Shown: positions 5,842 through 12,411, counted from the stretch's first letter. The stretch is DNA of 27,299 nt from an uncultured archaeon (GCA_964645535.1 CAZYCQ010000022.1:1-27299); one strand, 5' to 3'. Numbers and translations are program-made. Notes: a model not told the origin generated them from the sequence alone.

Positions 5842-6492
5842 CTACCTTGGTAGCTTTTCCTTCGGAATTTTTGTTTTTGGATCCTTGGGTCGTTTTTCGG
5901 AAGGGATTTTTGCACTTGATGGAAGATTTTTGGTACTTGGAGGTCTTTCATCTTTTACCACCCTGCTGATTTCTTTTGAGTGAATTCTGTTGGTTTTCAA
6001 GGTCTTGATAGGTTTGGGTTTTTCCTTTTTCTTTGGTTTCTTGGCAGGTACTGTCTTGACCTTGGTTTTTCCAATTGTCTTTGTCCGTGTGGGGACGGGG
6101 TTCTCTTTTTTTTGATTTTTTTCAATGCTTTTGACTGCAATGTTCTTCAGGGCTTTTTCTTTGACCTTTTTCGGTTTCTTGTCAATGTTTTTTTGTTTGA
6201 TGGATTTGGAACTGGTGGGGCGTTTTTCCTTTATTTTCATCTTGCTTGGGGAAGGGGGCTGTTTTTCCCTGATTGGGTTATTTGGTTTCCTTTCCACTGA
6301 GGTCTTGGGAATTGTCTTAAGCAATTTCTCGATCTTTACCTTTTTTTTCGGAGGAACGCTGGCTAGTCTCTGCCTAACTGTTTTTTTTGGAGGTTGATCT
6401 TTCTTTACTTCCGTTTTTGGAATGGTGTCCTTTGGAATCTTCTCTTTTGGTGTTTTCTGTTTGATTCGGTCTTTTTTGAAGGGAAGTTTCAT
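5842..6492 (-). CDS. Lys/Pro-rich, highly basic, predicted disordered protein (histone H1 tail-like composition)
   Basis: About 63 Lys in 216 aa by hand count; no Cys, Trp or Tyr. ATGA overlap with the upstream stop and a GGAGG ribosome-binding site support a real gene. Confidence 0.7.
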   Translation of the reverse strand: MKLPFKKDRIKQKTPKEKIPKDTIPKTEVKKDQPPKKTVRQRLASVPPKKKVKIEKLLKTIPKTSVERKPNNPIREKQPPSPSKMKIKEKRPTSSKSIKQKNIDKKPKKVKEKALKNIAVKSIEKNQKKENPVPTRTKTIGKTKVKTVPAKKPKKKEKPKPIKTLKTNRIHSKEISRVVKDERPPSTKNLPSSAKIPSEKRPKDPKTKIPKEKLPR

Positions 6493-6927: not shown

Positions 6928-8016
6928 TTACTTGAGCTTTTTGAGCACTTGGCGGGAATACTGCGAGGCATCCAACTTCAATTTTGTGGATAACCGGCTG
7001 ACCGGTTTGGAGCAACGGGGGCACAGGTTGGATTCCCTTCTCCACTCCTTCAGTTCCTGTTCATGGGCAGGGAACTTACAATGTGGACAGAGTACGATTT
7101 TGCCATCGGAGGGGCGAATCGGTTCATAGCAGATGGTGCAGGCCAAATCTTCTTTTCTCACATGGCCTGTCGGCATGAGATTCGTGCCTGTCTTCTTTCC
7201 ATTTCCATTCGTTCGACGTTGGGGGCGGACTTGAATTTCTCTTCCTGGTTCAATTGTCGCAATGTCTGTTCTTCTGGGTCTAGAGGGTATTCCATTGCTT
7301 CTTCGTGATCTTCTTGGGGATCTACGGAGATAGTCATTAAGGAATGCATTGGAATGGGCTGCACGGAATGTCTCCTCTTGCCGTCGGCGTGATTGTCTGC
7401 GAAGGATGTGTCTTCCAAGTACATAGTATTTGACCGTAGAATAAAGCCAGAAGGCAACCGCCATCAGTGCCAATGGATCAATGATGTGTGTTTTCCATCC
7501 TATGTAAAGGAAGGACATGGCCATTGCGGAATGAACCAGAAATGGCACCAGCCGTGTCCTGAACAGTTTCCGATGCACTGCGAATCCCAGCCATTCTTTT
7601 CTATGGATTTTCCAGAAGATGTAGGACTGAAACAGCAAATGAGGTAGTCCCAACAAAATTGTATGGAAGAAAATCAGCCTGTAGCCGTTTATCAGAATTA
7701 CACTTCTCTCCACAAGGATAGGTTCCATTGTTTCCCCAACAAGGAAACCCAAAAGAATCACCACATATGGCAACCCGACGAACTGGGAGCTTGCAAGGAT
7801 TGAATCATACCTTTGGAAATATCTCCGTTCCCAGAGAATCCTTGAAGAGACCATAGTCCATACGGTAAGGTAGGCAATTAGGATTGTTCTTGACATGTTC
7901 CCTGCCAGCAGGTAGAGGAATGCAATGACCGAACCGATCAGCCAGATGGCCACATACATCTCTATTGTATTGAATAGCCGTTCGATTCTATCAAGCAACC
8001 CCTCAAACATTGTCAT
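6928..8016 (-). CDS. Membrane-embedded RING-type E3 ligase (multi-TM N-terminus, Arg-rich linker, C-terminal RING)
   Basis: About six TM segments; C-terminal CTIC..CPHCKFPAHEQELKEW..LCPRC at ~7013-7140; located in the E1/E2/JAMM operon; ATGA overlap with the JAMM stop. Confidence 0.85.
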   Translation of the reverse strand: MTMFEGLLDRIERLFNTIEMYVAIWLIGSVIAFLYLLAGNMSRTILIAYLTVWTMVSSRILWERRYFQRYDSILASSQFVGLPYVVILLGFLVGETMEPILVERSVILINGYRLIFFHTILLGLPHLLFQSYIFWKIHRKEWLGFAVHRKLFRTRLVPFLVHSAMAMSFLYIGWKTHIIDPLALMAVAFWLYSTVKYYVLGRHILRRQSRRRQEETFRAAHSNAFLNDYLRRSPRRSRRSNGIPSRPRRTDIATIEPGREIQVRPQRRTNGNGKKTGTNLMPTGHVRKEDLACTICYEPIRPSDGKIVLCPHCKFPAHEQELKEWRRESNLCPRCSKPVSRLSTKLKLDASQYSRQVLKKLK

Positions 8017-8699
8017 TCCTCCATCTGATTCATTAACAGCGATATGGCCGCAAAAGCTGCTTCAGGAGTCATGCCTTCTACCTCGGATTCGAGTCGATAA
8101 TACTCATGCCGTCCTGACAGCCTGAACACTTCAAATCCATAGGATTCCTTGGTGATCATTGTGGGGTCGATGACAATCGCGATCGAGCTTTCCCAAAGGG
8201 CTTGGTATCGTGCTTGGGTTCTGACATCATCGATGCTCAGATAGGGGGAATAGGATGGATGGGAATGAGCCCAGCCTACGATAAATTCGTTTTCTTGCTT
8301 TTTGCGGAGAATATCCATTACAGGTTCTGCCTCCAGAATATTCACGCTTACTGCATTGCCATGTCCTACTGGCCAATATTGACTAACAATGATCCGTTCA
8401 ATGGGAGTGTTCTCATCAACAAGGGTGCCTGTCAGCAATCCTATGACTTCCACCCATTGGGAGGGATGCCGTTTGGGATTGGCAAACTTGATGGCATGAG
8501 CGGCCATATTCAGATAGGCTTCGGACTTCATGACAACTTGGGACTGACGGGGGATGGACAAATCATCCCTTTCATTGATGTCCGCCTTATCAGTGTTGTG
8601 CTCTCCGGTGGCCGTCGGTTCGAGTGCCATGAGGCTTTCGATGCGTTCGATCCTATCCAGGATTTCCCGATATTCCGGAGGCATTTTTTCCGAGTTCAT
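8013..8699 (-). CDS. JAMM/MPN+ metallo-isopeptidase (Rpn11/CSN5-like deubiquitinase or Ubl maturase)
   Basis: EVIGLL..VGWAHSHPSYSPYLSIDD (E..HxH-x7-S-x2-D intact), then TQARYQ and IAIVIDP. Confidence 0.93.
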   Translation of the reverse strand: MNSEKMPPEYREILDRIERIESLMALEPTATGEHNTDKADINERDDLSIPRQSQVVMKSEAYLNMAAHAIKFANPKRHPSQWVEVIGLLTGTLVDENTPIERIIVSQYWPVGHGNAVSVNILEAEPVMDILRKKQENEFIVGWAHSHPSYSPYLSIDDVRTQARYQALWESSIAIVIDPTMITKESYGFEVFRLSGRHEYYRLESEVEGMTPEAAFAAISLLMNQMEE

Positions 8700-8702
8700 A
8701 AG

Positions 8703-9224
8703 TCACCAATATTCCTTTGCGTATTTTTTGTTGATTGCCTTGGCCTTCTTCATGAACTTCTTCCGATCATTGAGATATTGCAAGGCAGCTTCCTTATTGA
8801 AGACATCCTTGGGGTTGATGAAAGCCCCATCGATATTGAACATTGCCAAAATTGAATGGATGACCGTTCCGATGTTTTTCGAAGGGCTCCAGCCGTTGGG
8901 CTTGCCTACCAGTTCCTGATCAACCAAGGCCAGACAAATGTTTCTTTTTCCTTGGTATTCCTTGGGGTTGGGCCAAAAGTTGGGATGCCAGATGGGGGTG
9001 TGCAACCTGACAAATGGTGGCTTATATGGGTAATTCGGTCCATATTTGATTTCAAGTTTGTACTTGCCGCCTTCATAGGGTGTCCCTTTTGGTCCCTTGA
9101 ACCCAATGGCCAAATGTTCTATCGATTTCTTTGTTGGAGAGAACGATTTGACCTGATCGATCACTCCTTTTTTGTACAGGTGCTTCAGAATTTCATAATC
9201 TTTGATGATTCTTTTCTTTCTCAT
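8703..9224 (-). CDS. Ubiquitin-conjugating enzyme E2 (UBC fold)
   Basis: GPKGTPYEGG, YPYKPPFVR, WHPN, catalytic ICL, WSP, NKEAA. Confidence 0.95.
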   Translation of the reverse strand: MRKKRIIKDYEILKHLYKKGVIDQVKSFSPTKKSIEHLAIGFKGPKGTPYEGGKYKLEIKYGPNYPYKPPFVRLHTPIWHPNFWPNPKEYQGKRNICLALVDQELVGKPNGWSPSKNIGTVIHSILAMFNIDGAFINPKDVFNKEAALQYLNDRKKFMKKAKAINKKYAKEYW

Positions 9225-10507
9225 GGTTTTCGTCCCTCATTGTACTTGATTTTGACATAGATGTCGATATCCTCCTCATTTCGGATGAAGCCAAGGGCGT
9301 AAAGGGTTTCCCCTTGTCTGATGTTTTCCTCATGAAGTGTCCGGTCAAGGGCAAGGGGTTCCATGTCTTCGCCATCCATCCTGTAATAACTTGGATCCAG
9401 GTCTGGATTCCTTAGGTACCCCTCTTTCCGAAGCAGAAGCTCGAGATTTTCTATGACGAGGGATCTTGGAACCTTTATTGAGAGGATTTTGGGTGCCTGC
9501 GGTCCGCAGAGCTGACAATCTGGGTTGGGTGGTTTCTTCAGGTAGAAGAACTTTCCTGTCACGCCATTGTATATGGTATATTCTAAATTGACTTGACCAA
9601 TGTTTCTCCCATGCAATTGATGGAGTGCCTTTATCGCTTCCTGTGATTGGATGGACGCAATGACCGCATTTATGGTTATCACTGTTGGCTCATGGAAATC
9701 TATCATGGAAACTGCCTCATCCAATGTGAACTCCTTCTCGTGGGGGAAGTGTTCTCTCACCAGTCGGTTCGCATAGTTGAGCACCTTTTCCATCTCTTCT
9801 CTGTTTGAGGTGTCCGGTTCTCTTCCAGTCTGGGATTCAAAGAAGAGTTGTCCTTTCAAAAGGCAATGGGATCGTTTTCTGGGAACTCCTACAAGAGTGC
9901 ATGCCGCAAGCGTTTCCCTTTCCCGTTCCTTCAGTGGATCACATTGCAGGCAGGCATTGGCTTTGGGCATGTAGGTGTAGATATGTCCATAGTATGTCAT
10001 GGTGCCTCCATCAATCAGCGGCTTGCCATTGTGCACTGCTTGCCGTGCAAGGTCCCTTCTGGCCTCTACATTGTCCAATCCTGATATGTAGAGATCCACT
10101 TCTTCGAAGATCATTGGATCAAGGGATTGAAGTTTCCCGTGGTGAGGGATGTAACTTCCATAGGGATTCACTTCCTTCAATTTCCTCGCTGCCGCGACCG
10201 CTTTGGATTCCCCTTCCTCTGCACCGATAAAAAGAATCTGGCGGTTGAGGTTACTGTATTCAATCACATCCATGTCCACAAGATGGAGGGTTCCCACTCC
10301 TGCCATGGCAAGATTCTTGGCAATTTCTGTACCAAGCCCTCCAATTCCTGCGATGAGTACTGATGATCGCTTTAGGGTTTCTTGATCCCATCCAGGAAGG
10401 CGAAACTGACGATCCAAACGTTTGCGTTCGTCAGGTGTGAGACTGTCGGAAAAGAAATTTGATCTGTTTTTGTCCATATTATTCACGTCCAGGGTGTCGG
10501 TCTTCAC
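9221..10507 (-). CDS. Ubiquitin-like activating enzyme E1 (ThiF/MoeB fold, Uba3-like catalytic Cys domain, probable C-terminal ubiquitin-fold domain)
   Basis: RLDRQ, GIGGLG, DMDVIEYSNLNRQILF, LDN, DGGT, Zn pairs CLQC and CQLC, and CTLVGVPRKRSHC resembling Uba3 CTIAxxPRxPEHC. The GTG start overlaps the upstream TGA. Confidence 0.93.
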   Translation of the reverse strand: MKTDTLDVNNMDKNRSNFFSDSLTPDERKRLDRQFRLPGWDQETLKRSSVLIAGIGGLGTEIAKNLAMAGVGTLHLVDMDVIEYSNLNRQILFIGAEEGESKAVAAARKLKEVNPYGSYIPHHGKLQSLDPMIFEEVDLYISGLDNVEARRDLARQAVHNGKPLIDGGTMTYYGHIYTYMPKANACLQCDPLKERERETLAACTLVGVPRKRSHCLLKGQLFFESQTGREPDTSNREEMEKVLNYANRLVREHFPHEKEFTLDEAVSMIDFHEPTVITINAVIASIQSQEAIKALHQLHGRNIGQVNLEYTIYNGVTGKFFYLKKPPNPDCQLCGPQAPKILSIKVPRSLVIENLELLLRKEGYLRNPDLDPSYYRMDGEDMEPLALDRTLHEENIRQGETLYALGFIRNEEDIDIYVKIKYNEGRKP

Positions 10508-10824
10508 CAGACCCCTGCCGTGGAGAAAGGTATGATGAGCATGGTGTCGCCATCCTCAACATCATAATTGTCGACGATGTCATCATCATCACAGGTTCTT
10601 CCTCCAATCACGATATGGAATGACTGGGTGTCTGGGAGTCCGAACAGGGTGGCAAGGGTCTGCTTGATGTCACGGATGGAGGCATCGCGGGCAATCTCCA
10701 GCGTCTCCTGCCGATGGCTTGGGCCGACTGTACTTTCGACTTGGATCCGTACCTTCCCTGAAGGGGGTAACTCTTCATCCAAGCCATCAATGTCCAGTTC
10801 TTCAAATTCTCTGTCTTCGCTCAT
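10504..10824 (-). CDS. Ubiquitin-like protein 2 (acidic N-terminal extension, ends STAG-VW)
   Basis: Beta-grasp pattern SIRDIKQTLATLFGLP..FHIVIGGRTCDDDDIVDNYDVEDGDTMLII. ATG 10824 chosen by similarity to the Ubl1 N-terminus; the alternative is 10875. Confidence 0.88.
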   Translation of the reverse strand: MSEDREFEELDIDGLDEELPPSGKVRIQVESTVGPSHRQETLEIARDASIRDIKQTLATLFGLPDTQSFHIVIGGRTCDDDDIVDNYDVEDGDTMLIIPFSTAGVW

Positions 10825-10871
10825 AACTAACCTTGCCCAATACAAGGTAATGAACGTTTCCCACAGAGGAT

Positions 10872-11216
10872 TCATTTGCCTGCCGTTGAGACAGGTATCA
10901 GGAGAAGGGAGTCTCCATCCTCAACCCCGTAATTGTCGAGGGAATCATCCGGATCACAAGTGCGACCTGCATGGGAGATATGGAATTCATCTGGAGGCAA
11001 TCCAAAAATCTGTCCCACCGTATACTTGAGATCCCTGATGGGGGCGTCTTTGGCCACAACCAGCTTCTCCTGCTTCTGGTTTGGACCAACCGTGCTCTGG
11101 AAATACACCGTCACCTTTTTTCCCGCAGGGGTCTTGGAGGTGGCGGGTGTCTTCGACTTTATTTCATTGACCAAAAGGTCATCATCTTCAAATGACAAGT
11201 CTTCAAACTCGCTCAT
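10872..11216 (-). CDS. Ubiquitin-like protein 1 (acidic N-terminal extension, ends STAG-K)
   Basis: PIRDLKYTVGQIFGLPPDEFHISHAGRTCDPDDSLDNYGVEDGDSLLLI matches the ubiquitin/SUMO 'TLxDYxIxDGxTIHL' pattern. ATG 11216 is preceded by AGGTGAT. Confidence 0.9.
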   Translation of the reverse strand: MSEFEDLSFEDDDLLVNEIKSKTPATSKTPAGKKVTVYFQSTVGPNQKQEKLVVAKDAPIRDLKYTVGQIFGLPPDEFHISHAGRTCDPDDSLDNYGVEDGDSLLLIPVSTAGK

Positions 11217-11289
11217 AGTAATCACCTGGGTTGTGGACCATGCAAACACATGATCACAACAACACACAAACATATATTACATTCCAAAC

Positions 11290-11297
11290 TATATAAA
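11290..11297 (-). promoter_or_regulatory. Archaeal TATA box of the ubiquitin operon
   Basis: TTTATATA preceded by purine-rich GATAGG on the minus strand; the same GGTTTATATA core occurs upstream of clpB. Confidence 0.65.
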
Positions 11298-11505: not shown

Positions 11506-12411
11506 TCAAGCATGTCGCGGAAGGACAAATCTTTGCATTGCAGCCGTGAACCTGTTTCTATTTCTAAAATTTTTCAAAAGGTGTTCTCCTTGACGTCCGC
11601 AGAGAATGGTCAATTGCTGAGCCCCCTTTTGCTCAAGGAATTCCTGTATTCTCCCTAACATGGCATCAGTTGCTTCTGTGTCGGGTACTGTCCGGGAGTA
11701 CACCGGTCCCATTCTCCACTTCCCTCTTGATTTTGTAAGTCGTGCCCATGCCCGTACTCCTCTTTCCAGAAAACAGAAATCCTTGATTTCCTCAACAAAT
11801 GTAGGGAGATTGGAAATCACATTTTTGGCAAATTCCGGAGAATAGCCTAGATTCTTTGCAAGCAGATCCGCTTTTTCTTTGGCGGAAATTCTTGTGCAAT
11901 CTTCTATATTGACATTATGCTCAAACGAGAATGCAGGGAGATCAATGATTGCACGATGCACCAAGGCTCCTTCCTGCTGAAATCCCTTTTCTTGCAGATA
12001 GTCATTGAACCCCCATGAGGGACTGACATTGCAGACAATGGCCTTGACCCCTTTGGTTTCGAGGATTCGGATACTTTCATTGATGAGGGCTTTTTCGATT
12101 TGCTCTGATCTAGGTCTTACTATTGGTGGTGACATTATACCCAAAGGTAGTGGAAGATCATTTGCATATAGTTCTGTCCCTGAAATGCTTGTCACGATCT
12201 TGGAAGTGATGAACCCTTTGATTTCTCCATCTACCCAATAAAGGCGGGTTGATGGATCACATTCATCACTGCGGTACAATCGTCTCAAGTATTCTTCTTC
12301 CGACTGATTAAAGAATTCCCATTCATTTTCCGCAATTTTACCGAGTCTGACTTGCTGTTCGATAAACCAGTTCAGTTTCTGTGGATCAAGGCTAACTATA
12401 TGTCCGCCCAT
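11506..12411 (-). CDS. GNAT-fold acetyltransferase-like protein, probably two GNAT domains
   Basis: DGEIKGFI..IEKALINESIRILETKGVKAI..YLQEKGF, and a second DAMLGRIQEFLEQKGAQQL unit. Confidence 0.6.
   Translation of the reverse strand: MGGHIVSLDPQKLNWFIEQQVRLGKIAENEWEFFNQSEEEYLRRLYRSDECDPSTRLYWVDGEIKGFITSKIVTSISGTELYANDLPLPLGIMSPPIVRPRSEQIEKALINESIRILETKGVKAIVCNVSPSWGFNDYLQEKGFQQEGALVHRAIIDLPAFSFEHNVNIEDCTRISAKEKADLLAKNLGYSPEFAKNVISNLPTFVEEIKDFCFLERGVRAWARLTKSRGKWRMGPVYSRTVPDTEATDAMLGRIQEFLEQKGAQQLTILCGRQGEHLLKNFRNRNRFTAAMQRFVLPRHA

Follow-up and report, generated by a model that had tools for sequence, protein, structure and literature searches.

The 27,299-nucleotide stretch of archaeal DNA analysed here (GCA_964645535.1 CAZYCQ010000022.1:1-27299, hereafter the window) is contig C22 of the Asgard genome G000 (3.6 Mb, 89% complete). 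On its minus strand lies a head-to-tail operon of six overlapping or closely spaced genes, encoding two ubiquitin-like proteins (Ubl1 and Ubl2), an E1-like activating enzyme, an E2-like conjugating enzyme, a JAMM metalloprotease and a membrane protein with a C-terminal RING finger (Table 1). We propose, with a probability of about 0.6, that Ubl1 and Ubl2 are two paralogous conjugatable modifiers sharing this one set of E1, E2, JAMM and RING proteins, and that Ubl2 is most likely a functionally distinct second tag, not a spare copy. Gene structure, paralogy, family membership, conservation and operon context were read directly, and from these we infer the enzymatic steps and the division of labour between the two proteins. 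Ubl2 most likely serves as a second tag because the SKTP module of its N-terminal tail is gone and its surface residues equivalent to ubiquitin Ile44 and Phe45 have changed, while it has remained under purifying selection.

Two ubiquitin-like proteins in one operon

An initial annotation had placed a pair of paralogous Ubls at positions 10504-11216 of the minus strand, and both coordinates and strand are correct. BLASTP aligns the two proteins with 48 identities in 85 positions (56%, E=5e-28), and the four motifs quoted in that annotation, STVGP, GRTCD, DNY[GD]VEDGD and IP[VF]STAG, are common to both. A GGTGAT ribosome-binding site lies 6 nucleotides upstream of the Ubl1 start. Ubl2 starts at the methionine of MSEDREFEEL, where its orthologues also begin; the orthologue in the same-genus genome G002 has a stop codon immediately before this conserved methionine, and the orthologue P0111 is 106 residues long. 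Database calls of 133 residues for Ubl1 (MFVCCCDH..., with its upstream part at 11217-11273) and 123 residues for Ubl2 (MNPLWETF..., 10825-10875) are probably mis-called starts, the shorter forms being favoured by the orthologue starts and the ribosome-binding sites. The Ubl1 stop shares an ATGA with an ATG at 10875, from which a minor longer Ubl2 isoform might conceivably arise.

Read base by base, Ubl1 ends in GCA-GGC-AAA-TGA (Ala-Gly-Lys-stop, ...IPVSTAG-K) and Ubl2 in GCA-GGG-GTC-TGG-TGA (Ala-Gly-Val-Trp-stop, ...IPFSTAG-VW), just as first annotated. Neither protein has the C-terminal di-glycine of the ubiquitin family, Ala-Gly standing in its place. When the family profile is aligned to ubiquitin, the Ubl1 tail has the same length as LRLRGG, with Ala at the Gly75 position.

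AlphaFold2 models both proteins as beta-grasp cores (residues 33-108 of Ubl1 and 24-99 of Ubl2) in beta-beta-alpha-beta-beta order, with a predicted local distance difference test score (pLDDT) above 90 in the core and disordered N-terminal tails. The top Foldseek matches are ubiquitins, and the best solved match to the Ubl1 model is the Caldiarchaeum ubiquitin bound to its Rpn11 homologue (6fno/6fnn). Ubl1 scores 27.3 bits with the Pfam ubiquitin model PF00240, above the curated cut-off of 25.4, and the family profile matches ubiquitin chains in the PDB. Among the seven lysines of ubiquitin, the equivalents of Lys11 and Lys27 are lysines in Ubl1, and only the Lys27 equivalent is a lysine in Ubl2. 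Arg85, beside the cysteine of GRTCD, aligns with ubiquitin Lys48. This cysteine had been put forward for a conservation check in homologous pairs; its position holds C, L or M across the homologues and aligns with the buried Leu50 of ubiquitin, which makes it a core residue. It was rejected as a reactive or regulatory site.

Between them, the six consecutive genes encode the components of a eukaryote-type ubiquitylation operon: the modifier, an E1 of ThiF type, an E2 of UBC type, a RING protein and a JAMM protein resembling Rpn11. Their order recurs in related genomes. Orthologues of the E1 directly follow the Ubl gene or genes in all related operons examined, and the membrane RING gene is kept at the same position in related operons. 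The E1 gene starts at a GTG (10505-10507) made up of the final base of the Ubl2 Trp codon and the opening TG of the stop codon TGA (10504-10506), an arrangement by which Ubl2 is predicted to be translationally coupled to the E1. By homology with the Caldiarchaeum system, the JAMM protein is a candidate for both processing and deconjugation: it would remove the pro-peptides (Lys from Ubl1, Val-Trp from Ubl2) and later release conjugated Ubls. The single E1 would adenylate Gly113 of Ubl1 and Gly104 of Ubl2, and the E2 and the membrane RING protein would pass the Ubls to target lysines, probably at the membrane. The N-terminal tail of Ubl1, with its FEDL motif and two SKTP lysines, is probably a functional module, either a Ubl-Ubl acceptor site or a recognition element. 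Ubl2 arose by tandem duplication within the lineage, and is most likely read or extended differently from Ubl1.

The IPxSTAG family, its tails and its processing

Homologues of Ubl1 fall into 109 clusters, all from Asgard metagenome-assembled genomes (MAGs) where a source is named, and 103 of the 105 cluster representatives carry Ala-Gly. The I-P-x-S-T-A-G end is invariant or nearly so across the family, and the invariant residues (Ubl1 numbering) are T42, G44, F78, G84, Y96, G101, L105, I107, P108, S110, A112 and G113. Conservation extends, unexpectedly for a disordered segment, into the N-terminal tail, whose consensus MSEFEDLxFD...IKSKTPAxSKTPAGKK contains the acidic FEDL motif and two SKTP units. 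F4, K22, P24, K28 and P30 are each at least 90% conserved in the family alignment; K22 and K28 hardly vary among sequences of Heimdall, Odin and Loki type. The double SKTP unit was found nowhere else in a scan of the whole host genome. Such conservation fits a functional role for the SKTP lysines, possibly as acceptors.

A profile search of 1.8 billion representatives revealed wider forms of the family. Genes in which two or three complete STAG-Ubl units follow one another head to tail (P0114, 372 aa; P0115, 250 aa; also P0070, P0076 and P0105) come from Asgard metagenomes, and each unit has its own acidic/KSKTP N-terminal tail of 30-40 residues. P0114 is labelled "molybdopterin converting factor small subunit" by one source, which looks like a mis-annotation. 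Fusion proteins of 270-560 residues (P0161, P0176, P0188, P0189, P0221, P0228 and P0260; also P0166 and P0215) have at their C-terminus a Ubl that ends in IPSSTAG or IPSSRAG, before which come a KTP tail and, ahead of that, a CPxC zinc-ribbon with a coiled-coil or another N-terminal region; their named sources are Loki/Promethearchaeota, Thor and Heimdall MAGs. These fusions may be conjugatable via their own C-terminus. A further protein of 227 residues (L043:4012-4695, plus strand, on contig C118 of genome G008) joins a long lysine-rich N-terminal region with K[TVI]P units (TIKSKVPT, MTKTPK) to a divergent Ubl that ends in IPVSIAA; lacking a terminal Gly, it is probably not conjugatable.

The alternative that both Ubls serve as sulfur carriers, of the MoaD/ThiS/SAMP/Urm1 type and with a MoeB-like E1 to activate them, and are not attached to proteins, is highly improbable. 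It can draw on the best NCBIfam models of the E1, which are MoeB and ThiF, and on the source label of P0114, but the MoeB, ThiF and UbaA scores are all far below their cut-offs, and neither Ubl matches a ThiS or MoaD Pfam family at E up to 0.1, ubiquitin being the top family. The operon also contains a canonical UBC E2, a RING protein and an Rpn11-like JAMM protein; no rhodanese or sulfurtransferase domain is reported in the E1. The closest folds are those of Caldiarchaeum and eukaryotic ubiquitin, and long N-terminal tails and poly-Ubl genes are atypical of sulfur carriers.

The initial annotation regarded the residues beyond Gly as masks, and JAMM cleavage as the gate to maturation of both modifiers. 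Among the 105 representatives, 38 (36%) stop exactly at Gly, and the other 67 have 1-13 extra residues whose sequence is not conserved. Within the genus, both G002 copies stop at Gly, the Ubl1 of G001 has one extra Ala and the Ubl2 of G001 has no extra residue; the JAMM gene is retained in all these operons, including those of G001 and G002. A masked end is therefore not a conserved gate. Maturation by the JAMM protein itself fares better: processing after Ala-Gly must occur in the family because head-to-tail poly-Ubl genes exist, and in Caldiarchaeum the JAMM protein CsRpn11 both matures the ubiquitin precursor and deconjugates, with the E1 refusing the precursor, as shown experimentally (PMC5654768, PMC6043591). 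From extensions that vary between 0 and 13 residues, and a JAMM gene kept even where the end is Gly, it follows that trimming is needed here and in the poly-Ubl genes, without a conserved regulatory gate. In analogy with CsRpn11, it is more likely that the conserved job of the JAMM protein is deconjugation and that maturation is a side duty.

The Ala-Gly system is the second such cascade in this genome, because a separate Gly-Gly Ubl-E1 pair is found on contig C20 (L049:1459-2695, plus strand). There, an 82-residue ubiquitin-family gene (PF00240, 49 bits) ending in TEGG-YGNF is directly followed by a 335-residue ThiF-type E1, and genes for aTrm56 and an amino-acid kinase adjoin. The TEGG end aligns with STAG. 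The Ala-Gly tail probably keeps its cascade orthogonal to the Gly-Gly pair, and Fuchs et al. argue for a similar separation of two cascades in the case of CsRpn11 versus CsJAMM (PMC6043591). Ala-Gly and Gly-Gly systems in one cell would be a natural case of two orthogonal cascades.

Ubl2 as a separate lineage

A search of 5.8 billion proteins with Ubl2 returned only two clusters, Ubl2 itself and one 84%-identical protein, and whole-genome searches added orthologues in two more species of the same genus. A metagenome scan with Ubl2 alone yielded no relative; a scan with the alignment of the Ubl2 clade yielded three loci, none with a Ubl2 orthologue and one (L060) with a further tandem pair. In all four known orthologues (G000, G001, G002 and P0111) Ubl2 is intact and keeps IPxSTAG. 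Maximum likelihood places the four in one clade (SH-aLRT support 96%), with a long stem and long tips; its sister is the second copy found in G011, which belongs to another genus of the family. Branches are short for the canonical Ubl1 copies of these genomes. Between the same pairs of species, the non-synonymous rate (dN) is 0.29-0.31 for Ubl2 and 0.08-0.12 for Ubl1, a difference of about threefold; the synonymous rate (dS) is saturated, and only the dN ratio and the statement that dN is much smaller than dS were used. Ubl2 is thus fast-evolving yet selected, its dN being higher than that of Ubl1 but far below the saturated dS.

Thirty-three columns are invariant across the Ubl2 clade, including the whole IPxSTAG tail. 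Scored at sites at least 85% conserved in canonical copies, the changes found in all four Ubl2 proteins are the loss of the S21-K22-T23-P24 unit and of K28, F39V, S81V/A (V/V/V/A) and H82I (I/I/I/I). S81 and H82 (Val72 and Ile73 of Ubl2) align with Ile44 and Phe45 of ubiquitin. Replacement by residues of the same hydrophobic kind at these two sites looks like a new state that has been fixed, not like drift.

It is possible that the altered surface, the extreme acidity of Ubl2 (net charge ~-17) and its want of the family tail module mark an unconjugated protein, a non-covalent regulator or decoy that occupies the E1, the E2, the JAMM protein or a receptor via its hydrophobic patch. We regard this as improbable. 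The conjugation tail is invariant in the Ubl2 clade, the Ubl2 proteins of G001 and G002 stop exactly at Gly and would be ready for activation unprocessed, and the gene is predicted to be coupled in translation to that of the E1.

Tandem operons of the order Ubl-Ubl-E1-E2-JAMM-membrane-RING occur in the genus of the window (G000-G002), in G011 from a second genus of the family, in a second family (G049, G051, G053, G055 and G059) and at the metagenome locus L060. In the second family, a RING-less paralogue of the ligase membrane domain comes after the RING gene. The second copies of this family cluster as a separate clade (99% support) in a different part of the tree, and there have therefore been at least two independent tandem duplications. 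In each tandem pair the first gene is canonical; in the second, the KTP motif is reduced or missing altogether, and the Ser-His site or a position beside it is altered. Most other operons have a single Ubl; 23 of 25 genomes of one genus in the related second family have one copy.

These data also bear on the possibility that Ubl2 is a redundant or slowly degenerating duplicate, serving the same targets through the same cascade and drifting under relaxed constraint. Its threefold non-synonymous rate, its very narrow range (the two clusters and two relatives in GTDB), the sufficiency of one Ubl in most related operons and the differing lysine counts of its orthologues are what such a duplicate might show. 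However, the frame is intact in four of four genomes, dN stays far under the saturated dS, the 33 columns with the whole tail are invariant, the Ile44/Phe45-equivalent replacements are of one hydrophobic kind in four of four orthologues, and independent tandem duplications have been kept in other lineages. Redundancy accordingly seems to us an unlikely account.

The initial annotation also compared the lysine content of the two proteins, counting about ten lysines in Ubl1, clustered in a linker, and two in Ubl2. Ubl1 has exactly ten, of which residues 20-34 hold five, the core four and the C-terminus one (K114); in Ubl2 there are two (K22 and K54), and three aligned positions are lysine in Ubl1 and arginine in Ubl2. 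The acidic N-terminal extensions noted in both proteins are also present, and the net charge of Ubl1 is ~-8. Compared with the long open reading frames of the genome, Ubl2 (1.9% lysine) lies at about the 3rd percentile and Ubl1 (8-9%) at the 79-86th, and the chance of two or fewer lysines in 104 residues is ~0.04 at the genome mean. The asymmetry is real and statistically modest, and it comes mainly from depletion in Ubl2, the content of Ubl1 being unremarkable. Its conservation in homologous pairs, which the annotation had marked for checking, is partial: the SKTP lysines are lost in four of four Ubl2 proteins, but total lysines in these orthologues are 2, 2, 5 and 5, with two tail lysines in G001 and four in P0111, and the second copies of other lineages have 4-8. 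Judged by these sequences, the conserved difference of Ubl2 is the loss of the tail module, not lysine poverty.

A minimal ubiquitin code had been suggested from this asymmetry, with Ubl1 building chains via its N-tail lysines as SUMO does, the lysine-poor Ubl2 acting as mono-modifier or chain terminator, and JAMM trimming licensing both. The near invariance of K22 and K28, the absence of both SKTP units from every Ubl2 orthologue, the three Lys-to-Arg replacements, and the fewer tail lysines and degraded motif in the second copy of every tandem pair are consistent with it, as is the formation of several Ub-Ub linkages by the Caldiarchaeum ubiquitin CsUb in vitro (PMC5654768). Yet with 2-5 lysines in the Ubl2 orthologues, some of them in the tail, there is no lysine-free cap, nor is there one among the second copies elsewhere; the pro-peptide is missing from 36% of homologues and from both G002 copies, which leaves trimming no general gate; SKTP differs from the SUMO consensus psi-K-x-E; and a motif for binding or phosphorylation would account for the conserved tail equally well. 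We therefore consider this code, as formulated, doubtful.

Several observations weigh against our preferred reading, in which Ubl2 is a second, distinct modifier. Ubl2 scores 23.6 bits with PF00240, just below the cut-off that Ubl1 passes, although it is 56% identical to Ubl1, and the zf-RING_2 match of the membrane protein is likewise under the Pfam cut-off. The tree was computed from ~117 columns in quick mode, with long-branch warnings, and the functional difference between Ubl1 and Ubl2 is deduced from few substitutions in only four orthologues. Finally, the same-genus genome G003 (93% complete, 10 contigs) yielded neither a STAG-Ubl nor an orthologue of the operon E1, the best E1 match being a 37%-identical paralogue; with the operon not found in so complete a relative, the system would be accessory and dispensable. 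Nor was the operon found in the searched genomes G014 and G048 (one from another family of the order, one from another family of the class), or in G012, from another genus of the same family, whose genomes otherwise have single-Ubl operons. This patchy distribution suggests an accessory function.

A stronger form of the two-modifier reading is tentative, and we think it rather unlikely in full. It would see in the Heimdall-group Asgard archaea a two-modifier system on one E1-E2-E3-protease set, in which Ubl1 is extended or recognised via its SKTP lysines and the second modifier has been repeatedly re-invented without the module and with a different Ile44-like reader surface. If this is true, tag identity, and possibly chain capping, would encode different fates, and the system would be a prokaryotic forerunner of the split between ubiquitin, SUMO and NEDD8, with polyubiquitin-like precursor genes.

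The ubiquitin systems of Asgard archaea are investigated as the source of ubiquitin signalling in eukaryotes; each of those characterised has a single ubiquitin, with a Gly-Gly end. The sequences described here define a distinct and widespread Asgard modifier family, marked by its invariant Ala-Gly end and by the conserved module in its N-terminal tail; poly-Ubl and Ubl-fusion genes belong to it as well. Since duplication of the modifier inside the operon was repeated, diversification into several Ubls, a eukaryotic hallmark, is already present in archaeal relatives. Being small and from a hot-spring organism, the proteins should suit in vitro study, as those of Caldiarchaeum have.

The locus, and comparison with known systems

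Table 1. Features of the operon, in positions of the window.
Feature	Position	Strand	Description
Ubl1 gene	10872..11216	(-)	114 aa + stop; canonical representative of the IPxSTAG ubiquitin-like family of Asgard archaea
Ubl1 acidic N-terminal segment, aa 1-19	11160..11216	(-)	MSEFEDLSFEDDD...; predicted disordered, pLDDT <50; F4 nearly invariant in family alignment
Ubl1 lysine linker, aa 20-34	11115..11159	(-)	IKSKTPATSKTPAGKK; two SKTP units; K22, P24, K28, P30 at least 90% conserved
Ubl1 C-terminal tail V109-S-T-A-G113 and one-residue pro-peptide K114	10875..10892	(-)	K114 codon 10875-10877; direct sequence reading
Ubl2 gene	10504..10824	(-)	106 aa + stop; fast-evolving genus-level paralogue without SKTP linker
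Ubl2 end	10507..10518	(-)	Ala103-Gly104 (10513-10518), then pro-peptide Val-Trp (10507-10512); direct sequence reading
E1-like activating enzyme	9221..10507	(-)	428 aa; ThiF domain, Pfam ThiF E=1.1e-54; weak beta-grasp-like C-terminal domain
E2-like conjugating enzyme	8703..9224	(-)	173 aa; canonical UBC fold family; HPN...C motif; Pfam UQ_con E=2.1e-25
JAMM/MPN+ metalloprotease	8013..8699	(-)	228 aa; intact HSHPSYSPYLSIDD motif (H-x-H-x7-S-x2-D); Pfam JAB E=1.3e-13
Membrane protein with C-terminal RING finger, candidate E3	6928..8016	(-)	362 aa, hydrophobic; Pfam zf-RING_2 E=1.3e-4
TATA-box-like element	11290..11297	(-)	TTTATATA; ~75 nt upstream of Ubl1 start; predicted from sequence only

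Sequencing runs that contain the locus are hot-spring metagenomes only, all of them DNA and from one study, and the source names on homologues are Kariarchaeaceae, Heimdallarchaeota, Hodarchaeales, Odinarchaeota and Lokiarchaeota. The host is probably a Heimdall-group archaeon of the Kariarchaeaceae from a hot spring. Directly upstream of the promoter region, the open reading frame at 11506-12411 (minus strand, 301 aa) matches no Pfam family at E up to 0.1. At the end of the operon lies a gene (5842-6492, minus strand) whose product has a very high content of Lys, Pro, Thr and Ser and contains loose K[TI]P units (QKTPK, EKIPK, KTIPK, TKIPK) that faintly resemble the Ubl1 linker. This gene had no match at the two same-genus loci examined, in a search that may miss a low-complexity protein. 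Beside strongly acidic Ubls, its lysine-rich product could be a substrate or partner. S-K-T-P was rejected as a general acceptor consensus common to this protein and Ubl1, the former having only loose units and the double motif being unique to Ubl1 genome-wide.

Membership of bacterial Bil/CBASS-type antiviral operons or of other known defence systems was rejected: in PADLOC the E1 matched E1-E2 fusion models by its generic adenylation domain only, and the Ubls, E2, JAMM and RING proteins matched nothing. In the literature searched, whose coverage was incomplete and leaves novelty unproven, no description of Ala-Gly Asgard Ubls or of tandem Ubl pairs was found.

The initial annotation also likened the tails to that of SUMO. 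Both share a beta-grasp core after a flexible, lysine-bearing N-terminal extension, and a precursor form. SUMO, however, matures to Gly-Gly by cysteine proteases and has its tail acceptor in psi-K-x-E, whereas here the protease is a JAMM protein and the tail lysines stand in S-K-T-P. Rad60-SLD scores of 17.9 and 21.2 bits are under the Pfam cut-off of 23.8, ubiquitin being the better match, and with the Ala-Gly end these points led us to reject both the likeness of the tail and membership of the SUMO family. SUMO paralogues do differ in chain forming (SUMO1 versus SUMO2/3).

UFM1, ATG8 and ATG12 resemble the present proteins in having a reactive C-terminal Gly after a non-Gly residue, and UFM1 and ATG8 require C-terminal trimming. 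They differ in using their own non-canonical E1 and E2 enzymes (UBA5/UFC1, ATG7/ATG3 or ATG10) and cysteine proteases, in place of the UQ_con E2 and the JAMM protein of this operon. Neither Ubl shows similarity to the UFM1 or ATG8 families in Pfam at E up to 0.1, and with a canonical UQ_con partner, membership of the UFM1/ATG8/ATG12 group was rejected.

Eukaryotic polyubiquitin and ubiquitin-fusion genes find a parallel in relatives of Ubl1, where two or three units can stand head to tail in one gene and the Ubl can form the C-terminal domain, ending in STAG, of a larger protein; the window itself has neither form. In contrast to the eukaryotic genes, each archaeal repeat has its own tail of 30-40 residues, and the Ubl is C-terminal to its partner, not N-terminal as in ubiquitin-ribosomal fusions. 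The ESCRT-linked ubiquitin of Asgard archaea is alike in being a ubiquitin-family modifier with E1, E2 and RING partners and a cleavable C-terminal extension. It differs in its di-glycine and its clustering with ESCRT genes, compared with Ala-Gly and a separate E1-E2-JAMM-membrane-RING operon here. The pro-ubiquitin of Helarchaeia has Gly-Gly followed by Ser-Pro-Lys-Asn (10.1101/2023.07.25.550441), and Heimdall and Odin ubiquitins are also di-glycine (PMC9192718).

The system of Candidatus Caldiarchaeum subterraneum (CsUb, E1, E2, RING and CsRpn11; PMC5654768, PMC6043591; PDB 6fj7, 6fnn, 6fno) has the same kinds of genes in its operon, a beta-grasp modifier and a precursor with a C-terminal pro-peptide. 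CsUb is encoded by a single gene and has a Gly-Gly end and no long N-terminal tail, whereas two genes, Ala-Gly ends and an acidic/SKTP tail of ~30 residues are found here; the Caldiarchaeum RING protein is small and soluble, whereas this one is the C-terminus of a multi-pass membrane protein. On sequence grounds the operon is one of the Caldiarchaeum/Asgard kind, set apart by four differences: the Ala-Gly end, the conserved N-terminal tail, the membrane RING protein and the duplicated modifier.

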